Part shown: positions 1 to 7,621 of the stretch, piece after piece | Numbering within the stretch: the first letter of the stretch is position 1 | Layout: the number at the start of each line of letters is the position of its first letter | Origin: a virus | Lineage: Duplodnaviria > Heunggongvirae > Uroviricota > Caudoviricetes | IMG/VR virus record: IMGVR_UViG_2693429700_000006 | Direction: 5' to 3' (one strand) | DNA length: 11,769 bases | The notes under the pieces: generated by a model | Seen by the model: the letters and a program-made list of their open reading frames with translations, nothing else | Database searches by the model: none | What the model was told of the DNA's origin: nothing | Made by a program: the position numbers and the translations under genes

Positions 1-124
1 GGGAAGGCTGGGCCATACTCCTCCGGCAGAAGCAGAAAAAGCTTATTATGCTTCCATCGGAAACGATGATCTGGCAGCCTGAGTTCACAGATAAAACACT
101 CTCCAGGAAACCCGGGGCGGTTCA
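1..124 (+). mobile_element. Right terminus of an IS3-family insertion sequence (IS629-like): 3' end of the orfB transposase reading frame (2..82, ...AEAEKAYYASIGNDDLAA-stop) plus terminal inverted repeat ending ...CCAGGAAACCCGGGGCGGTTCA at 124
   Basis: Reverse complement of 99..124 (TGAACCGCCCCGGGTTTCCTGGAGAG) is a near-identical inverted copy of 11637..11662 (TGAACCGCCCCGGAAATCCTGGAGAC). TGA...TCA termini are typical of the IS3 family. The plus-strand frame ending at 80..82 reads like a transposase C-terminus. The element extends beyond the window start. Confidence 0.75.
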
Positions 125-543
125 GGTTTTGGCGTGTATTCTGGAACAGGTTTCCCTTTTTTTCTGCATGCTTCTGCCCTGAGTCTCCAGTTTTCCTCAT
201 GACGCCGGTTCGTCATTTTCTGCATTGCTGAATAAATTTTTGATTCAGTAATGTCTCTTAGTTGCATTCCTGCGAAATGTTGAAGCCAGAATCCGATCCG
301 GCTTTTGTCATCGTCCAGTGATTTTTTATGTGCTTTCTCTTCAAGCCACCTGACACACGCTTCCTCGAACGTTATATCAGGTATTTCACCAAGTTTGCTG
401 ACCCGCCATGCTTCAGCCTTTAGCTTGTCATGGAGTTCTGTCGCCTGCCTTTTGTCCTTTGTTCCAAGAGACTGTTTAAATCTTTTACCGTTCGGCAATG
501 TGAAACTGGCGTACCATATTTCACCTCTGCGGAAGAGTGACAT
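85..543 (-). pseudogene. Tyrosine recombinase (phage integrase) N-terminal fragment, truncated by the IS insertion at 124/125; only about 139 native codons remain and the last 13 codons plus stop are IS-derived
   Basis: N-terminus [34 protein letters not shown]... resembles the N-terminal arm-binding domain of Rac-type lambdoid integrases, which are normally about 400 aa. The reading frame runs into the IS terminal repeat and stops at 85..87. The xis-int overlap arrangement is conserved. Confidence 0.8.
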
Positions 544-770
544 TTTCTTTCCTCTGTTATGCCATCACCCGCGCTCACCTGGACAGTATGCAGCGGAGAC
601 TGAAGAGCCGCAATGCAGGCTTGTCGTGTTGTGAGGTAAGGAGATTTATTCTTAGTGGGATCTTTGCGTGTTGCCTGAAGACGCCCTGTGCGTATCCAGT
701 TAATGGCAGTCGGTCTGGATATCTTGAGAAAATGACAGGCCTCATCGAGAGTGAGGCTGTATGGCTCCAT
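420..770 (-). CDS. Excisionase / recombination directionality factor (HTH_17-like DNA-binding protein), 116 aa from the internal Met ([31 protein letters not shown]...)
   Basis: The HTH motif is typical of Xis/AlpA-type excisionases. The ATG at 768..770 overlaps the TAA of the upstream gene as TAATG, and AAGAGGTG lies 6 nt upstream. The 3' end overlaps the int start as in lambda xis-int. The longer ORF starting at 854 is rejected. Confidence 0.7.
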
Positions 771-1075
771 TATTTCACCTCTTGCTGTGACATTGTTGAA
801 AAATGGATACCAGCTCGTTGCTGCCAGACGATCCAACCGAGAGTCATATCCCATGCCATGTATTCGTTATCGCCGTTTTTTGCTCTCCGACGATCTACTA
901 AGTCACCGAAACGCTTTTCCATGAATAATTCATAAGCTTCGCGTTCATCTGGTTCTACTTCCAGAGATAGGAGTGCGATTTCATAAGCACGGCGCTCAAT
1001 ATCGTCTCGCACGTCAAGGCTGCTGATACGCTCTTTAATTTCTTTAATCAGTTCTTTGTCGGTAAAAGTGGTCAT
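770..1075 (-). CDS. yfdT: Small acidic hypothetical phage protein, 101 aa (YfdT-like)
   Basis: Intact ORF, translationally coupled to neighbours by TAATG overlaps at both ends. Size and position in the P-Q-R-S-T order match the CPS-53 yfdPQRST cluster of E. coli K-12 as recalled (101 aa). Confidence 0.55.
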   Translation of the reverse strand: MTTFTDKELIKEIKERISSLDVRDDIERRAYEIALLSLEVEPDEREAYELFMEKRFGDLVDRRRAKNGDNEYMAWDMTLGWIVWQQRAGIHFSTMSQQEVK

Positions 1076-1437
1076 TATGCTCCAGCCTCCGGTGCTTTTG
1101 GCATTACTGCCCAGTGAGTGATATTGACGTTTTCAAGGTCCCCAACCTGAAATGTCCACTGCCATTCTCCGGTTTCTTTTTGTCCCCAGGTGTACCAGAG
1201 AGAACGCCAACCAATTAGCCAGCCTTCTCCGTTAGCATCGAATAACAAAACACTTTCATTTGCTGGTGGCAGTTCAGTTGACACTGGTATTACTTTGTTT
1301 TCCTGTGCTGCACATTTAGCTTCAAGCGCATCGAATTTACGCACCAGGTATTCAGCATCTGTTTCATTTACTTTCAGATCTCGCGGTACACATCTCCCAC
1401 GAAGAAACCCTTCCATTTCGAAAACATTCATGCGCAT
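1075..1437 (-). CDS. yfdS: Hypothetical phage protein, 120 aa, Trp-rich C-terminal half (YfdS-like, possibly DUF551)
   Basis: Intact ORF with its start overlapping the stop of the upstream HD-domain gene. Length and order match K-12 YfdS (120 aa) as recalled. Confidence 0.55.
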   Translation of the reverse strand: MRMNVFEMEGFLRGRCVPRDLKVNETDAEYLVRKFDALEAKCAAQENKVIPVSTELPPANESVLLFDANGEGWLIGWRSLWYTWGQKETGEWQWTFQVGDLENVNITHWAVMPKAPEAGA

Positions 1438-1964
1438 TTGCGTAACTCCGATAACTCGTTAAAGCGTTCCATAAACATCCCGTAGGCATGGCCCGGTGCC
1501 AGTGGAATCACGTTGAACATCTCTGTTGCCGGGATACCTTCCAGTACAGGCCAGAAAGAGCCATCATCAAGCCCGAGATCGCGGCGTTCGGTTGCCAGCA
1601 TGATGAGATCGGCATATTTCACGGGCGTACTCATAACTGGGGGTAACCCGTATTTCTCACGGATTACGGCGTCTATTTTTTCTTCCATTTGTTTATAGTC
1701 AGGAAGAAGGCGTTTCAGTGGTGCGGGAATGTCCTGGCAATACGCTTCTGTTGCATCATGCATTAACGCTTCAAAAGCAAATTCCTGCGGCACCAACTGG
1801 CTGCAAAGAACCGCATGTTGGGCGACGCTGTAGAAGTGCGAAAGATGACCGGCAAAGCGACAGATATTTGAAAGGGAAACCGCGATATCGTTAATATCGA
1901 TGTCGTCTTTATTTATCCTGTCATAATAAAAATGCTTCCCGGAAAAAGTTTTAATAAATGACAT
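1428..1964 (-). CDS. yfdR: HD-domain metal-dependent phosphohydrolase (YfbR-like 5'-deoxynucleotidase fold), 178 aa from the ATG at 1962..1964
   Basis: H...HD signature (FAGHLSHFYSVAQHAV ... LMHDATEAY). GGAG lies 7 nt upstream of the internal ATG, giving 178 aa, the recalled length of K-12 YfdR. The ORF-track GTG start at 1991 is less likely. Confidence 0.7.
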   Translation of the reverse strand: MSFIKTFSGKHFYYDRINKDDIDINDIAVSLSNICRFAGHLSHFYSVAQHAVLCSQLVPQEFAFEALMHDATEAYCQDIPAPLKRLLPDYKQMEEKIDAVIREKYGLPPVMSTPVKYADLIMLATERRDLGLDDGSFWPVLEGIPATEMFNVIPLAPGHAYGMFMERFNELSELRKCA

Positions 1965-2091
1965 TTTGTTCTCCACGTATATGCGCTGCACCGCGCTGAA
2001 TTTTGGTTAAAGAAAACCCTCGCCATCAGGCGATTATTGAGTTAATTACGTTTCTATAAATGCCCCCGCAGGGGCATTTGCAGTAATGAAA

Positions 2092-2916
2092 TCAGGCGGT
2101 GAAAGTACCAATAAAGGTTTCTACTTTGCTGTCTTTGAATTTTTCAACAAGCAGATTACGAAATTCGTTAGCCATTTCTTCCTGTACTGCTTCCAGCTGA
2201 ATAATGCGCAGAACCAGTACAGGGCGATCACCAGTGATAATGCTGAGGCGTAATTTAAACGGACGTTCTTTCAGGCCTTCAAACGGAACGCATTTAAACT
2301 CAAATGCTACTGGCATAATGTCTTTAGTTTTCGCTTCGACAGACTCCATCAGAGAGCGTTTGCCGCTGAAGTCATTGTCTTCAAAATCAGCGGTCTGGTT
2401 TGCTTCAATCGTGATTTTACGGACCGCCGCAGCCGCTTTTGTTGCCTGAATGGCGTCACCATTAGCATCAAAGCCCACAAGGTAGTCGGCCCAGTCTTCA
2501 ATCCATTCTGCCAGTGACTTCTGGGAGTTACGCTCGCCGTTAACAGACAACAGGGCAGAGAACGGTGCTGTCTTTTTCAGTTTGAGAGTGGCGGTGTTAT
2601 CTGCGTGACCTGGTTCATCAATAGTACCCAGGTTAAGCACACTGACGGCTCGCATATTATCAGCATCGATAAAGCAGCGGGTGCTTTCATCTGCAAGATC
2701 TTTAGAATAACGGGTAAAGTCATCGATGCTGGCAGTGGAAAGCGCACCACGGAAACGGAAGCGATTTAAATTAAATTTTTCCAGATCATGAATGCGGAAA
2801 TTCTCAGGCAATGCCACAGCATCGGCACCAATCTTACTGATAATTTCATTAACACCCTGAGCAGAAATAAGGGCATGGATTTGATTAATTTCGGTTGCGT
2901 CTAAGTTCTGAGACAT
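2092..2916 (-). CDS. yfdQ: YfdQ-like protein (DUF2303 family), 274 aa
   Basis: Intact 274-aa ORF with GAGGA 5-6 nt upstream of the ATG. Length and position match K-12 CPS-53 YfdQ as recalled. No catalytic motif recognised. Confidence 0.65.
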
Positions 2917-2981
2917 AATAAGTCCTCACTATATAAAGATATTCAGTGATGAGATAAATAATCAGTTAATTAAGAACGATA

Positions 2982-3344
2982 TTAATGACCTGCTGCGCGG
3001 AGTTTTCCGTCAGGCTCACCGGCAAGAGTCAGTAATTGTCCCTGGTCTTCCTGCAGAATAGTCAGGCGACCACCGCGATTGACATACATCGGTGTTTCGG
3101 TGGTGTCTTCTTCGGAAATTTTCCCGCGGTTAGTCGGGCGAACATATGAGAGTTTGTGTTTGATTTTCACACGGTTCTCATCAAATGGTTCGATTTCCAG
3201 GTTGAGCGAGACCTTACCTTTGGTTTTCGTGTTCATCACACCGGAAGCGACTTCACTGAGAACTGCGCCGATTTTGGTTTCAAATACGCCGCCGTCCAGC
3301 TCCCCGATAAATGCCTGCACATCAGTACTGCGTTCGCTAGCCAT
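2982..3344 (-). CDS. yfdP: YfdP-like hypothetical protein, 120 aa from the internal ATG (MASERSTDVQAFIGELDGG...)
   Basis: GAGGAG lies 8 nt upstream of the ATG at 3342..3344, giving 120 aa, the recalled K-12 YfdP length. The frame stays open upstream to 3530 but that extension has no RBS and overlaps structured leader sequence. Confidence 0.55.
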   Translation of the reverse strand: MASERSTDVQAFIGELDGGVFETKIGAVLSEVASGVMNTKTKGKVSLNLEIEPFDENRVKIKHKLSYVRPTNRGKISEEDTTETPMYVNRGGRLTILQEDQGQLLTLAGEPDGKLRAAGH

Positions 3345-3965
3345 TTTGCTGCTCCTCATCATATCGACCCTGCAAGGTCGGTTAGTTTCTCCACAAAACA
3401 GAGAAGAACACCTGCGGTGGCAGCCGCCCGGATGGATTGGGTTATGAGCCCGTCGTCCGGTGATGCTCTTCTCTGTTTTGTAAAAAGAGCGGTACCAGCC
3501 GGAAGCAAGTGTACAAACTGGTACCGCCAAAGCAGTGGCTGTTGTGGTGACCGGTGCTGATCTCCGGCTTGCGGTTATTTCAGACTCTCACGGGCGTTTA
3601 ATTGCCCCGCCGAACAGCTCTTTTCCGCAATAGCTGCAATGTCTTTCGCGCATCAGTCTGCGCATTCACCACAACGCTGAGAGCACTTAGCCAGTTACGG
3701 CACCACACTTTGTCGCGGTTCCATAAATGCCCTCATCGTTGCACCCTGGTCTCTTCCCAGGCGTCAAACCGAATCGCCACGCTGGTTAGGCGTCTTATCA
3801 GCATCATCATTGACTTGCACATTCCGGCTACCTGGTTTGTTTGCTCGAGCAAGGAGTGGATTGTCCCCTTTAACGTCACCAGACCGCTAACGACGCATGT
3901 GCCATACGCCGTGTTACAACCAAATTTTGTTTTAATCTTGCCTGTGTTATGTTTCTTTTAGATAC

Positions 3966-3993
3966 ATTGTGTGTCTCATGGATACATTGTCAA
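3966..3993 (-). promoter_or_regulatory. Candidate leftward early promoter (pL-like): -35 TTGACA (plus 3988..3993), 16-nt spacer, -10 CACAAT (plus 3966..3971), overlapped by two 10-bp direct repeats GATACATTGT (3961..3970 and 3981..3990)
   Basis: Read directly from the minus strand: TTGACAATGTATCcatgagacacACAATGTATC. It sits immediately downstream of the repressor terminator and upstream of the leftward operon. Confidence 0.4.
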
Positions 3994-4020
3994 GTATAAA
4001 AAAACCTGCCGAAGCAGGTT
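3994..4020 (-). terminator. Rho-independent terminator of the repressor gene
   Basis: Minus strand reads AACCTGC-ttcg-GCAGGTT followed by TTTTTTT, starting 13 nt after the repressor TAA stop. Confidence 0.6.
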
Positions 4021-4032
4021 CATAAATATTGA

Positions 4033-4707
4033 TTAGGCCTTTATTGTGTATCTTCTTGGTTTTCCCGAGAAAATCACTGTACCAATTATAGAGCAATTAC
4101 CGTTAATCTTAATGTAAGGCTCAGGCCAGTTTGGGTTTAATGCTTTGAGATAACGCTGTGTTCCATCTTCTATCAATCGCTTGAAGGTGGTTTCGCCTGT
4201 ATCGTGCATCAATGCAATAACGTCGTCACCGTGGCAGGCAGGGACTTCGGGATCAACAAAAATCATGTCTCCAGGGCGGTACTCATCAATCATTGAATCA
4301 CCAATCACCCGCAAGATATAAGTCATTTCGCCACAGGGTACAGGGCAGGGATACGTTTCTGCTGTGCTCAAATCAACCTCAGAATAGCCAACTTCTTTCC
4401 ATGCTCCGGCCTGTACCCATGATATGACAGGGACTAACGTTATTTGTTTGTTAGTGATTGAAACATCAGGTTTTTTTGTGATGTTCGTTGTCTGGTGTTC
4501 TTGATCAAGCCATCCGACAGGCAGGTCGAAACATTTTTCGATGTGCCGTGCCATGCTGTCACCGATATTTTTAGTAGCGCCATCCCCCATAAACCTGCTG
4601 GTCTGGGTTGGCTCGCGATCAATCATGGTGGCAAAGGATGAATTTCCGCCAACACCATCTCTCAGTTTTCTGGCGTTAGACCGCCGGATGTCATGGATTG
4701 TTTTCAT
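4033..4707 (-). CDS. CI-like prophage repressor, LexA/S24 peptidase family (N-terminal HTH, C-terminal autocleavage domain), 224 aa
   Basis: C-terminal S24 signature with catalytic Ser in VIGDSMIDEY and a downstream Lys (TFKRL). Divergent from a Cro-like gene with operator palindromes between them. There is no good SD, consistent with a leaderless pRM-type transcript. Confidence 0.85.
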   Translation of the reverse strand: MKTIHDIRRSNARKLRDGVGGNSSFATMIDREPTQTSRFMGDGATKNIGDSMARHIEKCFDLPVGWLDQEHQTTNITKKPDVSITNKQITLVPVISWVQAGAWKEVGYSEVDLSTAETYPCPVPCGEMTYILRVIGDSMIDEYRPGDMIFVDPEVPACHGDDVIALMHDTGETTFKRLIEDGTQRYLKALNPNWPEPYIKINGNCSIIGTVIFSGKPRRYTIKA

Positions 4708-5593: not shown

Positions 5594-5768
5594 ACAGTTT
5601 AACAACACACTACCGTCGCTCGCAACTGATTGCGCTTCCTGTACCGGGTGGAAAAGCGAAGGTGGAGTATTGCTATGCAGTAAATGTACCAGGTGACAGG
5701 GAAATTGTAACCCACAGCTTTGCAGAGTGGGCTGTGGGTGATTTCAACCGGCAGAAGGAGACAGTCCT

Positions 5769-5948: not shown

Positions 5949-6276
5949 ATTAACCGGCTATGTATGGGATGGTTGCGCTGCATCAGGCATGAAATTATCC
6001 AGCGTGGCAATTATGGCCCGCCTGGCTGATTTCAGTAATGACGAAGGTGTGTGCTGGCCATCAATTGAAACCATTGCCCGTCAGATTGGCGCGGGGATGA
6101 GTACCGTCAGAACGGCTATCGCACGGCTGGAAGCAGAAGGCTGGTTAACGCGTAAGGCGCGTCGCCAGGGTAACCGCAATGCGTCGAATGTTTATCAGCT
6201 TAACGTTGCGAAGCTTCAGGCAGCGGCATTTTTTCAACTGTCAGATTCTGACCCGTCAAAATTTCTTACCTGCTGA
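5938..6276 (+). CDS. Winged-helix (HTH_36-type) DNA-binding protein resembling the N-terminal domain of phage replication initiators, 112 aa; probably truncated
   Basis: Signature ...WPSIETIARQIGAGMSTVRTAIARLEAEGWL... is typical of the HTH_36 family. Only 112 aa, followed by a 290 bp region with no intact ORF. Confidence 0.6.
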   Translation: MSTKLTGYVWDGCAASGMKLSSVAIMARLADFSNDEGVCWPSIETIARQIGAGMSTVRTAIARLEAEGWLTRKARRQGNRNASNVYQLNVAKLQAAAFFQLSDSDPSKFLTC

Positions 6277-6568
6277 CAAGTGGGTAACGCCACGCATGAT
6301 GACGAGAACTACCGGAGTAAGCGAAGCCAGGTGCCAGTTAATACTGACTCAGTTAGTTCTGGCGGGTCTGGCGAAGGATAACGGCGGGTACGGGAATAAA
6401 TTCAGACGCTGCCAGTAATGGCGGTTTCCTGCTGTGAAAATGGGCGGCTGGTGGGTGTTGGTAGCACCTGCCAGCCATTCGCTCATGCTTACTGGTCACA
6501 AGCGAACCACGGCCCACTGCTTTAGCGCAAAAGCAGAGTGAGCCTACCAGAGTTACGCTTACTGATCC

Positions 6569-7621
6569 ATGAAAAATACTGTAAAAATAAACAGTATTGA
6601 TTTAATCAACGCTGATTGCCTGCATTTTATTCAGTCCCTGCCTGATGATTCCATTGACCTGATTGTTACCGATCCGCCTTACTTCAAGGTGAAACCTAAC
6701 GGTTGGGACAATCAGTGGAAAGGGGACGAAGATTACCTTAAGTGGCTGGACCACTGTCTGGCCCAGTTCTGGCGGGTGTTAAAACCTGCCGGAAGCCTTT
6801 ACCTGTTCTGTGGGCATCGCCTGGCATCTGATATTGAGATCATGATGCGTGAACGTTTCAACGTGCTTAACCATATCATCTGGGCGAAGCCGTCCGGACG
6901 TTGGAATGGGTGTAATAAAGAAAGTCTGCGCGCATATTTTCCTGCCACAGAGCGCGTTCTGTTTGCTGAACATTACCAGGGGCCATATCGCGGCAAAAGT
7001 GACGGCTATGCAGCAAAAGAAAGGGAACTCAAACAGCACATAATGGCACCGCTGATATCGTATTTCAGGGATGCTCGTGCCGAACTGGGTATAACGGCAA
7101 AACAAATTGCCGAAGCCACAGGTAAGAAAAATATGGTTTCCCACTGGTTTGGTGCCAGTCAGTGGCAGTTGCCGAATGAGGCTGACTATCGGAAGTTACA
7201 GGCACTGTTTTCCCGTATAGCGGCAGAGAAGTTTCAGGAACAACAACTGGAACAACCACACCACCAGCTGGTGGCATCTTATGATTCACTGAATCGCAAA
7301 TATTCTGAATTGCTGGATGAGTTTAAATCTCTCCGGCGCTATTTCTCCGTATCAGTCTCCGTGCCTTATACCGATGTCTGGATGCATAAACCCGTTCAGT
7401 TCTACCCGGGTAAACATCCGTGTGAGAAACCGGCGGATATGCTCAGGCAAATAATCAATGCCAGTAGTCGACCTGGTGATCTGGTTGCTGATTTTTTTAT
7501 GGGATCCGGTTCCACAATAAAAGCAGCAATGGCGCTGGGGCGTCGGGCCTTAGGTGTTGAGCTTGAGTCAGAGCGGTTTAACCAGACAGTGAAAGAGATA
7601 AACGAGCTGGTGGGGAAATAA
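6569..7621 (+). CDS. Orphan DNA N6-adenine (or N4-cytosine) methyltransferase, beta class, 350 aa
   Basis: Motif IV DPPY at residues 35..38 (IVTDPPYF) and motif I FxGxG near the C-terminus (DFFMGSGST). This IV-then-I order defines the beta class. No restriction endonuclease gene is adjacent. Confidence 0.85.

Follow-up and report, generated by a model that had tools for sequence, protein, structure and literature searches.

The leftward early operon of phage lambda carries N, Ea10, ral, sieB, kil, cIII, gam, bet, exo, xis, and int, whereas the corresponding operon in the viral record IMGVR_UViG_2693429700_000006 (Caudoviricetes) carries five yfd genes ahead of xis and int, one of them encoding an HD-domain protein, and no recognizable N-like, Red, Gam, or kil gene. 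What do these five genes do, and do they belong together? The DNA analyzed here, referred to as the window, is a stretch of 11,769 nucleotides, in which all five genes are present as minus-strand open reading frames (ORFs) between positions 770 and 3344. The initial annotation, made from the sequence alone, treated them as one accessory module with a possible role in host takeover. RefSeq already names the genes, an overexpression phenotype has been in the literature since 2016, and the architecture since 2025. What is new here is that the conserved unit is the YfdP-YfdQ pair, the HD gene being optional and the DUF551-type genes exchangeable.

The YfdP-YfdQ Pair Is the Conserved Unit

Judged by amino acid identity to the full-length proteins of the K-12 prophage CPS-53 (YfdP, 99.2%; YfdQ, 98.2%; YfdR, 97.8%; YfdS, 95.8%; YfdT, 96.0%), the genes at 770-3344 are orthologues of K-12 yfdP, yfdQ, yfdR, yfdS, and yfdT, a cluster already known and annotated. 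Because the proteins are 96-99% identical, their identification as a leftward yfdP-Q-R-S-T-like cluster is correct, and the names assigned by the NCBI annotation pipeline (PGAP) bear it out. E. coli A0 34/86 has a prophage integrated at thrW that is 99.9% identical in DNA sequence over a 3.1-kb stretch; in it, PGAP names yfdT, "phage protein," yfdR (5'-deoxynucleotidase), yfdQ, and yfdP. Of 5426 complete E. coli genomes, 3438 match this stretch, 1726 of them over at least 80% of its length, and the functional phages SfV, SfIV, cdtI, mEp460, and Ayreon, together with Stx2c-converting phages, match it at 96-98%. In a set of 83 E. coli-type viral contigs, the arrangement seen most often is P-Q-R-S-T on a single strand, with xis/int after it and overlaps between R, S, and T; P-Q-R is constant in these loci, S and T vary, and yfdT is missing from many.

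A tblastn search of phage genomes yielded YfdQ homologues in 184 records, from phages of Escherichia, Salmonella, Vibrio, Xanthomonas, Pseudomonas, Halomonas, Thalassomonas, and Acinetobacter. The gene directly upstream of the YfdQ homologue in each of nine distant phages encodes 114-140 amino acids, and all nine products match a YfdP profile (E = 4e-69 to 2e-20). The phage loci were pooled with loci from viral contigs to give 189 loci, whose YfdQ sequences form 32 clusters at 80% identity (22 at 70%, 14 at 60%); a first scan of the viral contigs with a YfdQ alignment had returned 99%-identical loci only, and a scan with the Acinetobacter homologue returned none. YfdP is encoded directly upstream of YfdQ on the same strand in 187 of the 189 loci, and the two exceptions have YfdQ at the contig edge, so that the pair is adjacent in every one of the 187 assessable loci. 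It is likewise adjacent in all 32 clusters, which derive from Escherichia, Salmonella, Vibrio, Pseudomonas, Halomonas, Xanthomonas, and Acinetobacter phages. The phages that carry it, some temperate and others probably virulent, infect many Gammaproteobacteria.

The other neighbors are far less constant. Within the 32 clusters, an S24 repressor gene is found upstream on the same strand in 16, an HD YfdR-like gene downstream within 2 kb in 11, a DEDD exonuclease in nine, a YqaJ exonuclease in seven, ERF or RecT in seven, and single-stranded DNA-binding protein (SSB) in four; 15 clusters have at least one of ERF/RecT, YqaJ, DEDD exonuclease, or SSB no more than 5 kb from the pair. The order in Vibrio phages is ERF-YqaJ-(DEDD)-YfdP-YfdQ-(SSB), that in TL-2011c is RecT-Exo-SSB-YfdP-YfdQ, and in Xanthomonas phage CP2 the pair lies near ERF/YqaJ/SSB. 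Pseudomonas-type loci have the order repressor ... YfdP-YfdQ-x-(DEDD)-HD-methyltransferase. Because YfdP-YfdQ is invariant while its other neighbors vary in this way, the five-gene "module" is a composite, and the view of it as a single evolutionary unit has to be abandoned: YfdR is facultative outside the phages of enterobacteria, and YfdS and YfdT vary even among E. coli phages. The sharper question is therefore the role of YfdP and YfdQ, which are strictly linked across distant phages and present in roughly two-thirds of E. coli genomes. As a separate observation, a DEDD exonuclease gene followed directly by the HD gene is a recurring neighborhood in Pseudomonas-type phages.

YfdQ matches Pfam family PF10065 over nearly the whole profile (positions 2-269 of 269), scoring 309.4 bits where the cut-off is 26.6 (E = 2.5e-92). 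The family comprises 1795 clusters at 50% identity, all of them stand-alone proteins of ~270 amino acids in which H104 and R166 never vary and several Arg, Asp, and Glu positions are nearly invariant. YfdP has no family in the copy of Pfam used here, and precomputed data assign it to the newer PF27127. AlphaFold2 models of the two proteins (mean predicted confidence, pLDDT, of 80 for YfdQ and 79 for YfdP) have no convincing fold relatives in the Protein Data Bank (PDB) libraries searched, which do not contain entry 9o7m, and neither fold is similar to the Rad52-like, RecA-like, Gp2.5, or Gam folds. The profile searches agree with the models in giving no recombination-type assignment: no Pfam, PHROG, or NCBIfam recombination family (Exo/Bet/Gam, RecT, ERF, Sak4, Abc2) was matched by any of the five proteins.

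By sequence, the only PDB relative of YfdQ is 9o7m, a 274-amino-acid "YfdQ Protein" from a Xanthomonas CP2-like phage, present as 36 identical chains (E = 8e-44 over residues 14-273). It belongs to the same family and has the same length as YfdQ, but is a distant relative from a phage group of different lifestyle. The PDB, including 9o7m, contains no YfdP-like chain. No biochemical activity is known for YfdP or YfdQ, though 9o7m gives a 36-chain structure, for which we found no publication; a 2026 article in Nature on large protein rings of phages (RAZR) was considered as its source and set aside, as it concerns Erf-like Gp77 and portal proteins and not YfdQ. We also rejected the idea that YfdP might be a paralogue of YfdQ or a fragment of it that has diverged, raised by the annotation of both proteins as DUF2303 in a Halomonas phage (hhalign probability 0.1%). 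The most conserved part of YfdP is residues ~70-105 (window 3030-3135), with the pattern PT.RGK.SEEDTTETPMYV.RGGKLT, where the confidence of the model falls; on the model, this region looks like a partner-binding tail rather than part of the folded core.

Function of the Operon

The initial annotation referred to a report that overexpression of the K-12 yfdQRST cluster inhibits replication initiation and that YfdR binds DnaA. The report is that of Noguchi and Katayama (2016; PMC4776307). Multicopy yfdQ and yfdR together with either yfdS or yfdT suppress the over-initiation of hda-185, inhibit initiation at oriC in wild-type cells, and raise resistance to hydroxyurea. Purified YfdR binds domain I of DnaA through Phe46, in moderate competition with DiaA and DnaB. 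The same study found a yfdQ deletion to be weakly sensitive to methyl methanesulfonate (MMS) and H2O2, and a yfdS deletion to be sensitive to H2O2. A preprint (10.1101/413146) reports that deletion of K-12 yfdQ abolished the plaque-like demarcation formed by a T1-like phage and that a plasmid restored it. Because the proteins are 96-99% identical, the K-12 phenotype and the binding of YfdR to DnaA should apply to the window copy.

We see an even chance that these genes form an early-left operon, induced by the SOS response or on infection, whose sole demonstrated activity is the inhibition of DnaA-dependent initiation, with YfdR binding DnaA and YfdQ and YfdS or YfdT needed in vivo. In its native setting within a lysogen, the operon would be silent, and cleavage of the S24 repressor during the SOS response, or infection, would turn it on. 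Its products would then slow initiation on the host chromosome at natural expression levels, and the phage might benefit through the freeing of DnaB for its O-like initiator. YfdR may in addition dephosphorylate (deoxy)nucleoside monophosphates. YfdP and YfdQ would form a complex, with YfdQ as a large homo-oligomer, that acts on the phage or host DNA-replication or recombination machinery and not as a recombinase, recombination itself presumably being left to host RecBCD at the many Chi sites of the phage.

The host-takeover role is thereby the best experimentally anchored reading of the cluster, but several points weigh against it. All replication phenotypes come from multicopy or overexpression, and deletion of yfdQRST has no replication phenotype; yfdP is dispensable for the inhibition of initiation, purified YfdR on its own fails to block initiation in vitro, and YfdR's affinities for nucleotides are described as far below those of YfbR (Noguchi and Katayama 2016, citing Zimmerman et al. 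2008). No structural or sequence clue links YfdP or YfdQ to a known biochemical activity, and phages far from E. coli that carry the pair need not target an E. coli-type DnaA. The control region adds a further point: we infer the pL-like promoter from its position, because promoter-like sites in our scan are no commoner than in shuffled sequences (six found, 7.0 expected) and no operator common to the pL-like region and the cI-cro region was found. The window copy keeps its native repressor and leader, and such lineages, or better the intact phages SfV, mEp460, and Ayreon, are suited to a study of function at natural expression levels.

A broader reading, which we hold only tentatively, takes YfdP-YfdQ to be an obligate cassette that could encode a new phage complex for DNA transactions or for targeting the host replisome; the DnaA/oriC effect would be one manifestation of it, and the HD or the single-strand annealing protein (SSAP)/YqaJ companions would be interchangeable. 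The 11 HD clusters and the seven ERF/RecT clusters do not overlap at all among the 32, a small sample with phylogenetic clumping.

Pfam, PHROGs, NCBIfam, and PADLOC bear out the initial observation that the cluster has no recognizable catalytic domain other than the HD domain of YfdR. YfdR matches phrog_318, "deoxyribonucleoside 5' monophosphate phosphatase," with E = 2.7e-110; it scores just below the cut-off of the Pfam YfbR-like family PF12917 (25.0 bits against 25.9) and well below that of NCBIfam NF003009 (20.5 bits against 122). On these scores YfdR is an HD-superfamily relative, not a YfbR equivalog. PDB entry 2gz4 (Atu1052) matches YfdR with E = 3e-14, the AQH, HDA, and AD motifs of the two align, and the metal-binding residues H50, H69-D70 (with E73 and D78), and D119 are present in alignment with Atu1052; the H...HD...D residues are also kept in the Pseudomonas-type homologues.

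It is from YfdR that an anti-defense explanation starts, which we regard as unlikely: by analogy with the deoxynucleoside monophosphate (dNMP) phosphatase Dmp of phage T5, YfdR might remove dNMPs, or a nucleotide-derived immune signal or its precursor, early in infection, with the neighboring genes as passengers. Its name in PGAP and its phrog_318 match, its intact catalytic H/HD/D residues, and its place in an early operon all agree with such a role, as does the position of the Pseudomonas-type HD gene directly after that of a DEDD exonuclease, an enzyme that would yield dNMPs. T5 Dmp has been shown to act against Kongming immunity by destroying dAMP, and it resembles YfdR in annotated activity class (dNMP to deoxynucleoside) and in early expression. 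The two proteins, however, have no detectable homology (best BLASTP E = 3.5), the reported active-site mutant of Dmp is D22A, whereas YfdR is an HD-domain protein, and no PADLOC defense-system model matches any of the five proteins. The scores of YfdR under the YfbR-type cut-offs of Pfam and NCBIfam and its low reported substrate affinities also argue against this explanation. Anti-Kongming Dmp mostly accompanies a phage dNMP kinase, and none was noticed among the window ORFs that were scanned, which were a part of the total in a record that lacks most of the phage genome. Finally, an anti-defense role leaves unexplained why yfdQ and yfdS or yfdT are required for the only known phenotype.

The initial annotation had also placed the HD gene "in place of" exo/bet/gam/kil. 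Between the repressor gene and int, no gene of the exo, bet, gam, or kil type was recognized, and in this positional sense the description is accurate; the replacement is not a functional one, because in TL-2011c, as in Vibrio and Xanthomonas phages, the pair adjoins a complete Rec module. The literature, moreover, accounts for the absence of Red genes without invoking the yfd genes. Lambdoid phages without a Rec module carry yfdR/yfdQ/yfdP homologues in the early-left operon and are rich in co-oriented Chi sites, and for them reliance on host RecBCD and Chi has been proposed (PMC12315714, 2025). Over its 11.8 kb, the window has eight Chi sites (GCTGGTGG), of which seven lie on the plus strand; shuffled sequences had a mean of 0.35 and a maximum of three. 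With no Rec gene in the early-left operon, yfdR/Q/P behind the repressor, and dense co-oriented Chi (the class is defined by at least four in one orientation; Table 1 of PMC12315714), the window fits the "no Rec module, Chi-rich" class of LLS functional type, although it is a partial view of a remnant, so that RecBCD-aided growth cannot apply to it now. Two of the Chi sites overlap head-to-head at 7261-7274, inside a methyltransferase gene.

These data bear on a second rival, that YfdP-YfdQ is a cryptic recombination system, a single-strand annealing or recombination-mediator pair that would replace Red/Erf/RecT. It, too, we consider improbable. The window lacks a Rec module, and elsewhere the pair lies between YqaJ and SSB (Vibrio), beside RecT-Exo-SSB (TL-2011c), or near ERF/YqaJ/SSB (CP2); YfdQ is a large homo-oligomer, as annealing proteins are; the K-12 yfdQ deletion shows a weak sensitivity to MMS and H2O2; and HD and SSAP loci do not overlap in the 32-cluster sample. 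But in seven of the 32 clusters, the pair stands alongside complete SSAP and exonuclease modules and therefore is not their substitute, and the 2025 study came to the same conclusion from phage ArgO145, in which the cluster occurs with a full Rec module, judging it improbable that the yfd genes are recombinases in disguise. Phage LLS has the pair, is rich in Chi, and grows better with RecBCD (PMC12315714), which points to host-mediated recombination.

Least probable of the explanations weighed is a domesticated benefit to the lysogen, in which low expression would help the host to survive oxidative, acid, or replication stress apart from the phage cycle: the frequency of the cluster in E. coli (3438 of 5426 genomes), its survival in remnants such as K-12 CPS-53 and the window copy, the H2O2 sensitivity of yfdQ and yfdS deletions, and the hydroxyurea resistance on multicopy would suit it, but the genes lie behind an intact repressor gene and terminator with no internal promoter that stands out, and therefore expression in the lysogen should be low, while their conservation in functional and probably virulent phages indicates a function in the phage cycle, and their high frequency may just reflect that SfV-like prophages are common.

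Operon Architecture and Control Region

From right to left, the operon has the order CI-like repressor, terminator, pL-like promoter, ~620-nt leader, yfdP, yfdQ, hairpin, yfdR-yfdS-yfdT-xis-int'. Coordinates are given in Table 1.

Table 1. Features of the window; positions count from its first nucleotide
Feature	Position	Strand	Basis or remark
IS629/IS1203-type (IS3-family) right end, inverted repeat ...CCGGGGCGGTTCA	1..124	+	Direct sequence reading; interrupts integrase gene
int', 5' third of tyrosine integrase gene, cut by IS	125..498	-	PGAP integrase of intact relative L001 maps up to 498; match stops at 125
xis, excisionase, 117 aa, HTH_17	420..770	-	phrog_2907, E = 1.1e-50; Pfam HTH_17; PGAP coding sequence in L001; start overlaps yfdT stop
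yfdT, 101 aa, without defined domain, variable accessory gene	770..1075	-	96.0% to K-12 YfdT; phrog_660, function unknown
yfdS, 120 aa, C-terminal DUF551, variable accessory gene	1075..1437	-	95.8% to K-12 YfdS; phrog_583
yfdR, 178 aa, HD-domain phosphohydrolase annotated 5'-deoxynucleotidase	1428..1964	-	97.8% to K-12 YfdR; phrog_318
yfdQ-yfdR intergenic region, GC-rich hairpin right after yfdQ stop and second, weak terminator-like hairpin	1965..2091	-	RNA fold
yfdQ, 274 aa, DUF2303, acidic (pI about 5.0)	2092..2916	-	Pfam PF10065
yfdP, 120 aa, upstream partner of yfdQ	2982..3344	-	Long helix, three-strand beta-meander, conserved low-confidence C-terminal tail
Structured leader, ~620 nt, untranslated	3345..3965	-	No annotated or recognizable gene; mosaic among relatives
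pL-like sigma-70 promoter candidate, TTGACA-16-CACAAT	3966..3993	-	Promoter scan; promoter annotated at same position in Ayreon
Intrinsic terminator of repressor gene	4002..4021	-	8-bp stem, then T run; terminator annotated in Ayreon and SfV
CI-like LexA-family (peptidase S24) repressor	4033..4707	-	Peptidase_S24, E = 1.5e-26; annotated ymfK/LexA-family; cI in SfV
Chi sites	1262, 5282, 6447, 7261(-), 7267, 7606, 9015, 11190	+ unless marked	
IS629/IS1203-type left end, inverted repeat and start of orfA	11637..11769	+	Sequence reading; truncates large terminase gene

The description of the five genes as tightly coupled holds for yfdR-yfdS-yfdT-xis. One-base TAATG overlaps join yfdS to yfdT (at 1075) and yfdT to xis (at 770), as first noticed, and yfdR and yfdS overlap by 10 nt (ATGCGCATGA), but gaps of 65 nt and 127 nt separate yfdP from yfdQ and yfdQ from yfdR, the latter with a hairpin. 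The yfdR start is taken as the ATG that follows GGAG; the mechanically called ORF begins at a GTG at 1991. The yfdQ-yfdR gap folds with -40.3 kcal/mol (z = -3.65), with a strong hairpin, AAAUGCCCCUGCGGGGGCAUUU, directly 3' of the yfdQ stop and a weaker terminator-like site before yfdR at 2033-2020; the annotation of phage Ayreon has a terminator at the equivalent position. These hairpins may attenuate transcription and leave YfdP and YfdQ in excess over YfdR-S-T, which would be consistent with YfdQ as a very large oligomer. A weak RNA-family match at window 1921-2100 (E = 0.45) is probably due to chance.

The initial annotation placed the cluster directly under a pL-like promoter. The candidate is the only positionally sensible site, lying just past the cI terminator, but ~620 nt separate it from yfdP. 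A 10-bp direct repeat, GATACATTGT, at 3961-3970 and 3981-3990 overlaps both of its hexamers. The repeat was considered as a shared operator and rejected, being absent from the cI-cro region; the palindrome TACAnnnTGTA of the cI-cro region is likewise absent from pL.

The leader between promoter and yfdP folds with z = -5.14 over 3345-3700 and contains a 25-nt inverted repeat (3393-3417/3457-3481) and a perfect 10-nt repeat (3489-3498/3518-3527). It has no recognizable ORF, N-like antiterminator, or Rfam family, and could be an antitermination or processing element. Ayreon diverges from it over 3549-3660; SfV diverges over 3529-3936 and carries orf33 (98 amino acids; phrog_3195, function unknown) in a longer leader with an extra terminator, the window leader being a different mosaic.

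Prophage Setting and Related Systems

The window, an IS-truncated, defective remnant of a lambdoid prophage of the SfV/CPS-53 type, represents its immunity and early region. IS termini stand at both its ends in direct orientation, the right end of the element at the left edge and the left end at the right edge. Positions 1-124 have no match in an intact relative (L001), the junction homologous to them is annotated as an IS1203-family transposase in NZ_CP148401, and the terL junction in the record L094 is annotated as a terminase "missing C-terminus" followed by an IS1203-family transposase. Elements of the IS629/IS1203 type are typical of enterohemorrhagic E. coli and Shigella-like backgrounds. 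The mechanical ORF at 85-543, in the int region, extends into IS sequence. Compared with the intact relative, ~5.5 kb of replication and nin genes is deleted at about 6262-6433; the lost stretch starts within the O-like initiator, whose C-terminal two-thirds are gone, and goes on to include RusA, KilA-N, DUF968, and the Q antiterminator.

In view of these losses, the prophage as a whole cannot be called less decayed, with int and terL cut by IS ends and the replication and nin genes gone, but in comparison with K-12 the description is apt in one respect. The genes of K-12 CPS-53 (KpLE1), their order, and their overlaps are alike, whereas there everything upstream of yfdP has been lost and torI replaces the excisionase of the window; because homology to K-12 ends 19 nt upstream of yfdP, the window copy, unlike that of K-12, keeps its own CI-like repressor, promoter region, and leader, together with an SfV-type xis. 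The functional temperate phage SfV (orf28-orf32) has the same operon layout, with 97-98% DNA identity over xis, yfdT...yfdP, cI, and cro. The likeness to the lambda pL operon is one of position and direction, that of a repressor-controlled leftward early operon ending in xis-int; the window differs in that its repressor gene is co-directional, lies immediately upstream, and has its own terminator.

Among the accessory proteins, YfdS has a borderline DUF551 (22.2 bits against a cut-off of 22) and no PDB relative, and YfdT has no Pfam or PDB match. Similarity between YfdS and YfdT, considered as an explanation of their genetic redundancy, amounts to a weak Trp-rich match (E = 0.34) and was rejected.

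Small RNA candidates were seen in two relatives. Sub-threshold matches to Rfam STnc100 (39.5 and 35.1 bits against a gathering threshold of 47) lie at SfV 4380-4595 and ST64B 3727-3845, in the leader upstream of the yfdP homologue; the window leader has no such match. These two phages, only distantly related, suggest that the STnc100 candidate belongs to the early-left leader. The YfdQ of ST64B is only about 57% identical to that of the window. The window, which diverges from SfV at 5603, has no matches to the isrK and C4 antisense RNA genes, which score above the Rfam gathering threshold at SfV 7232-7420 and ST64B 1117-1305, among the "immunity region" genes to the right of the cII-like gene.

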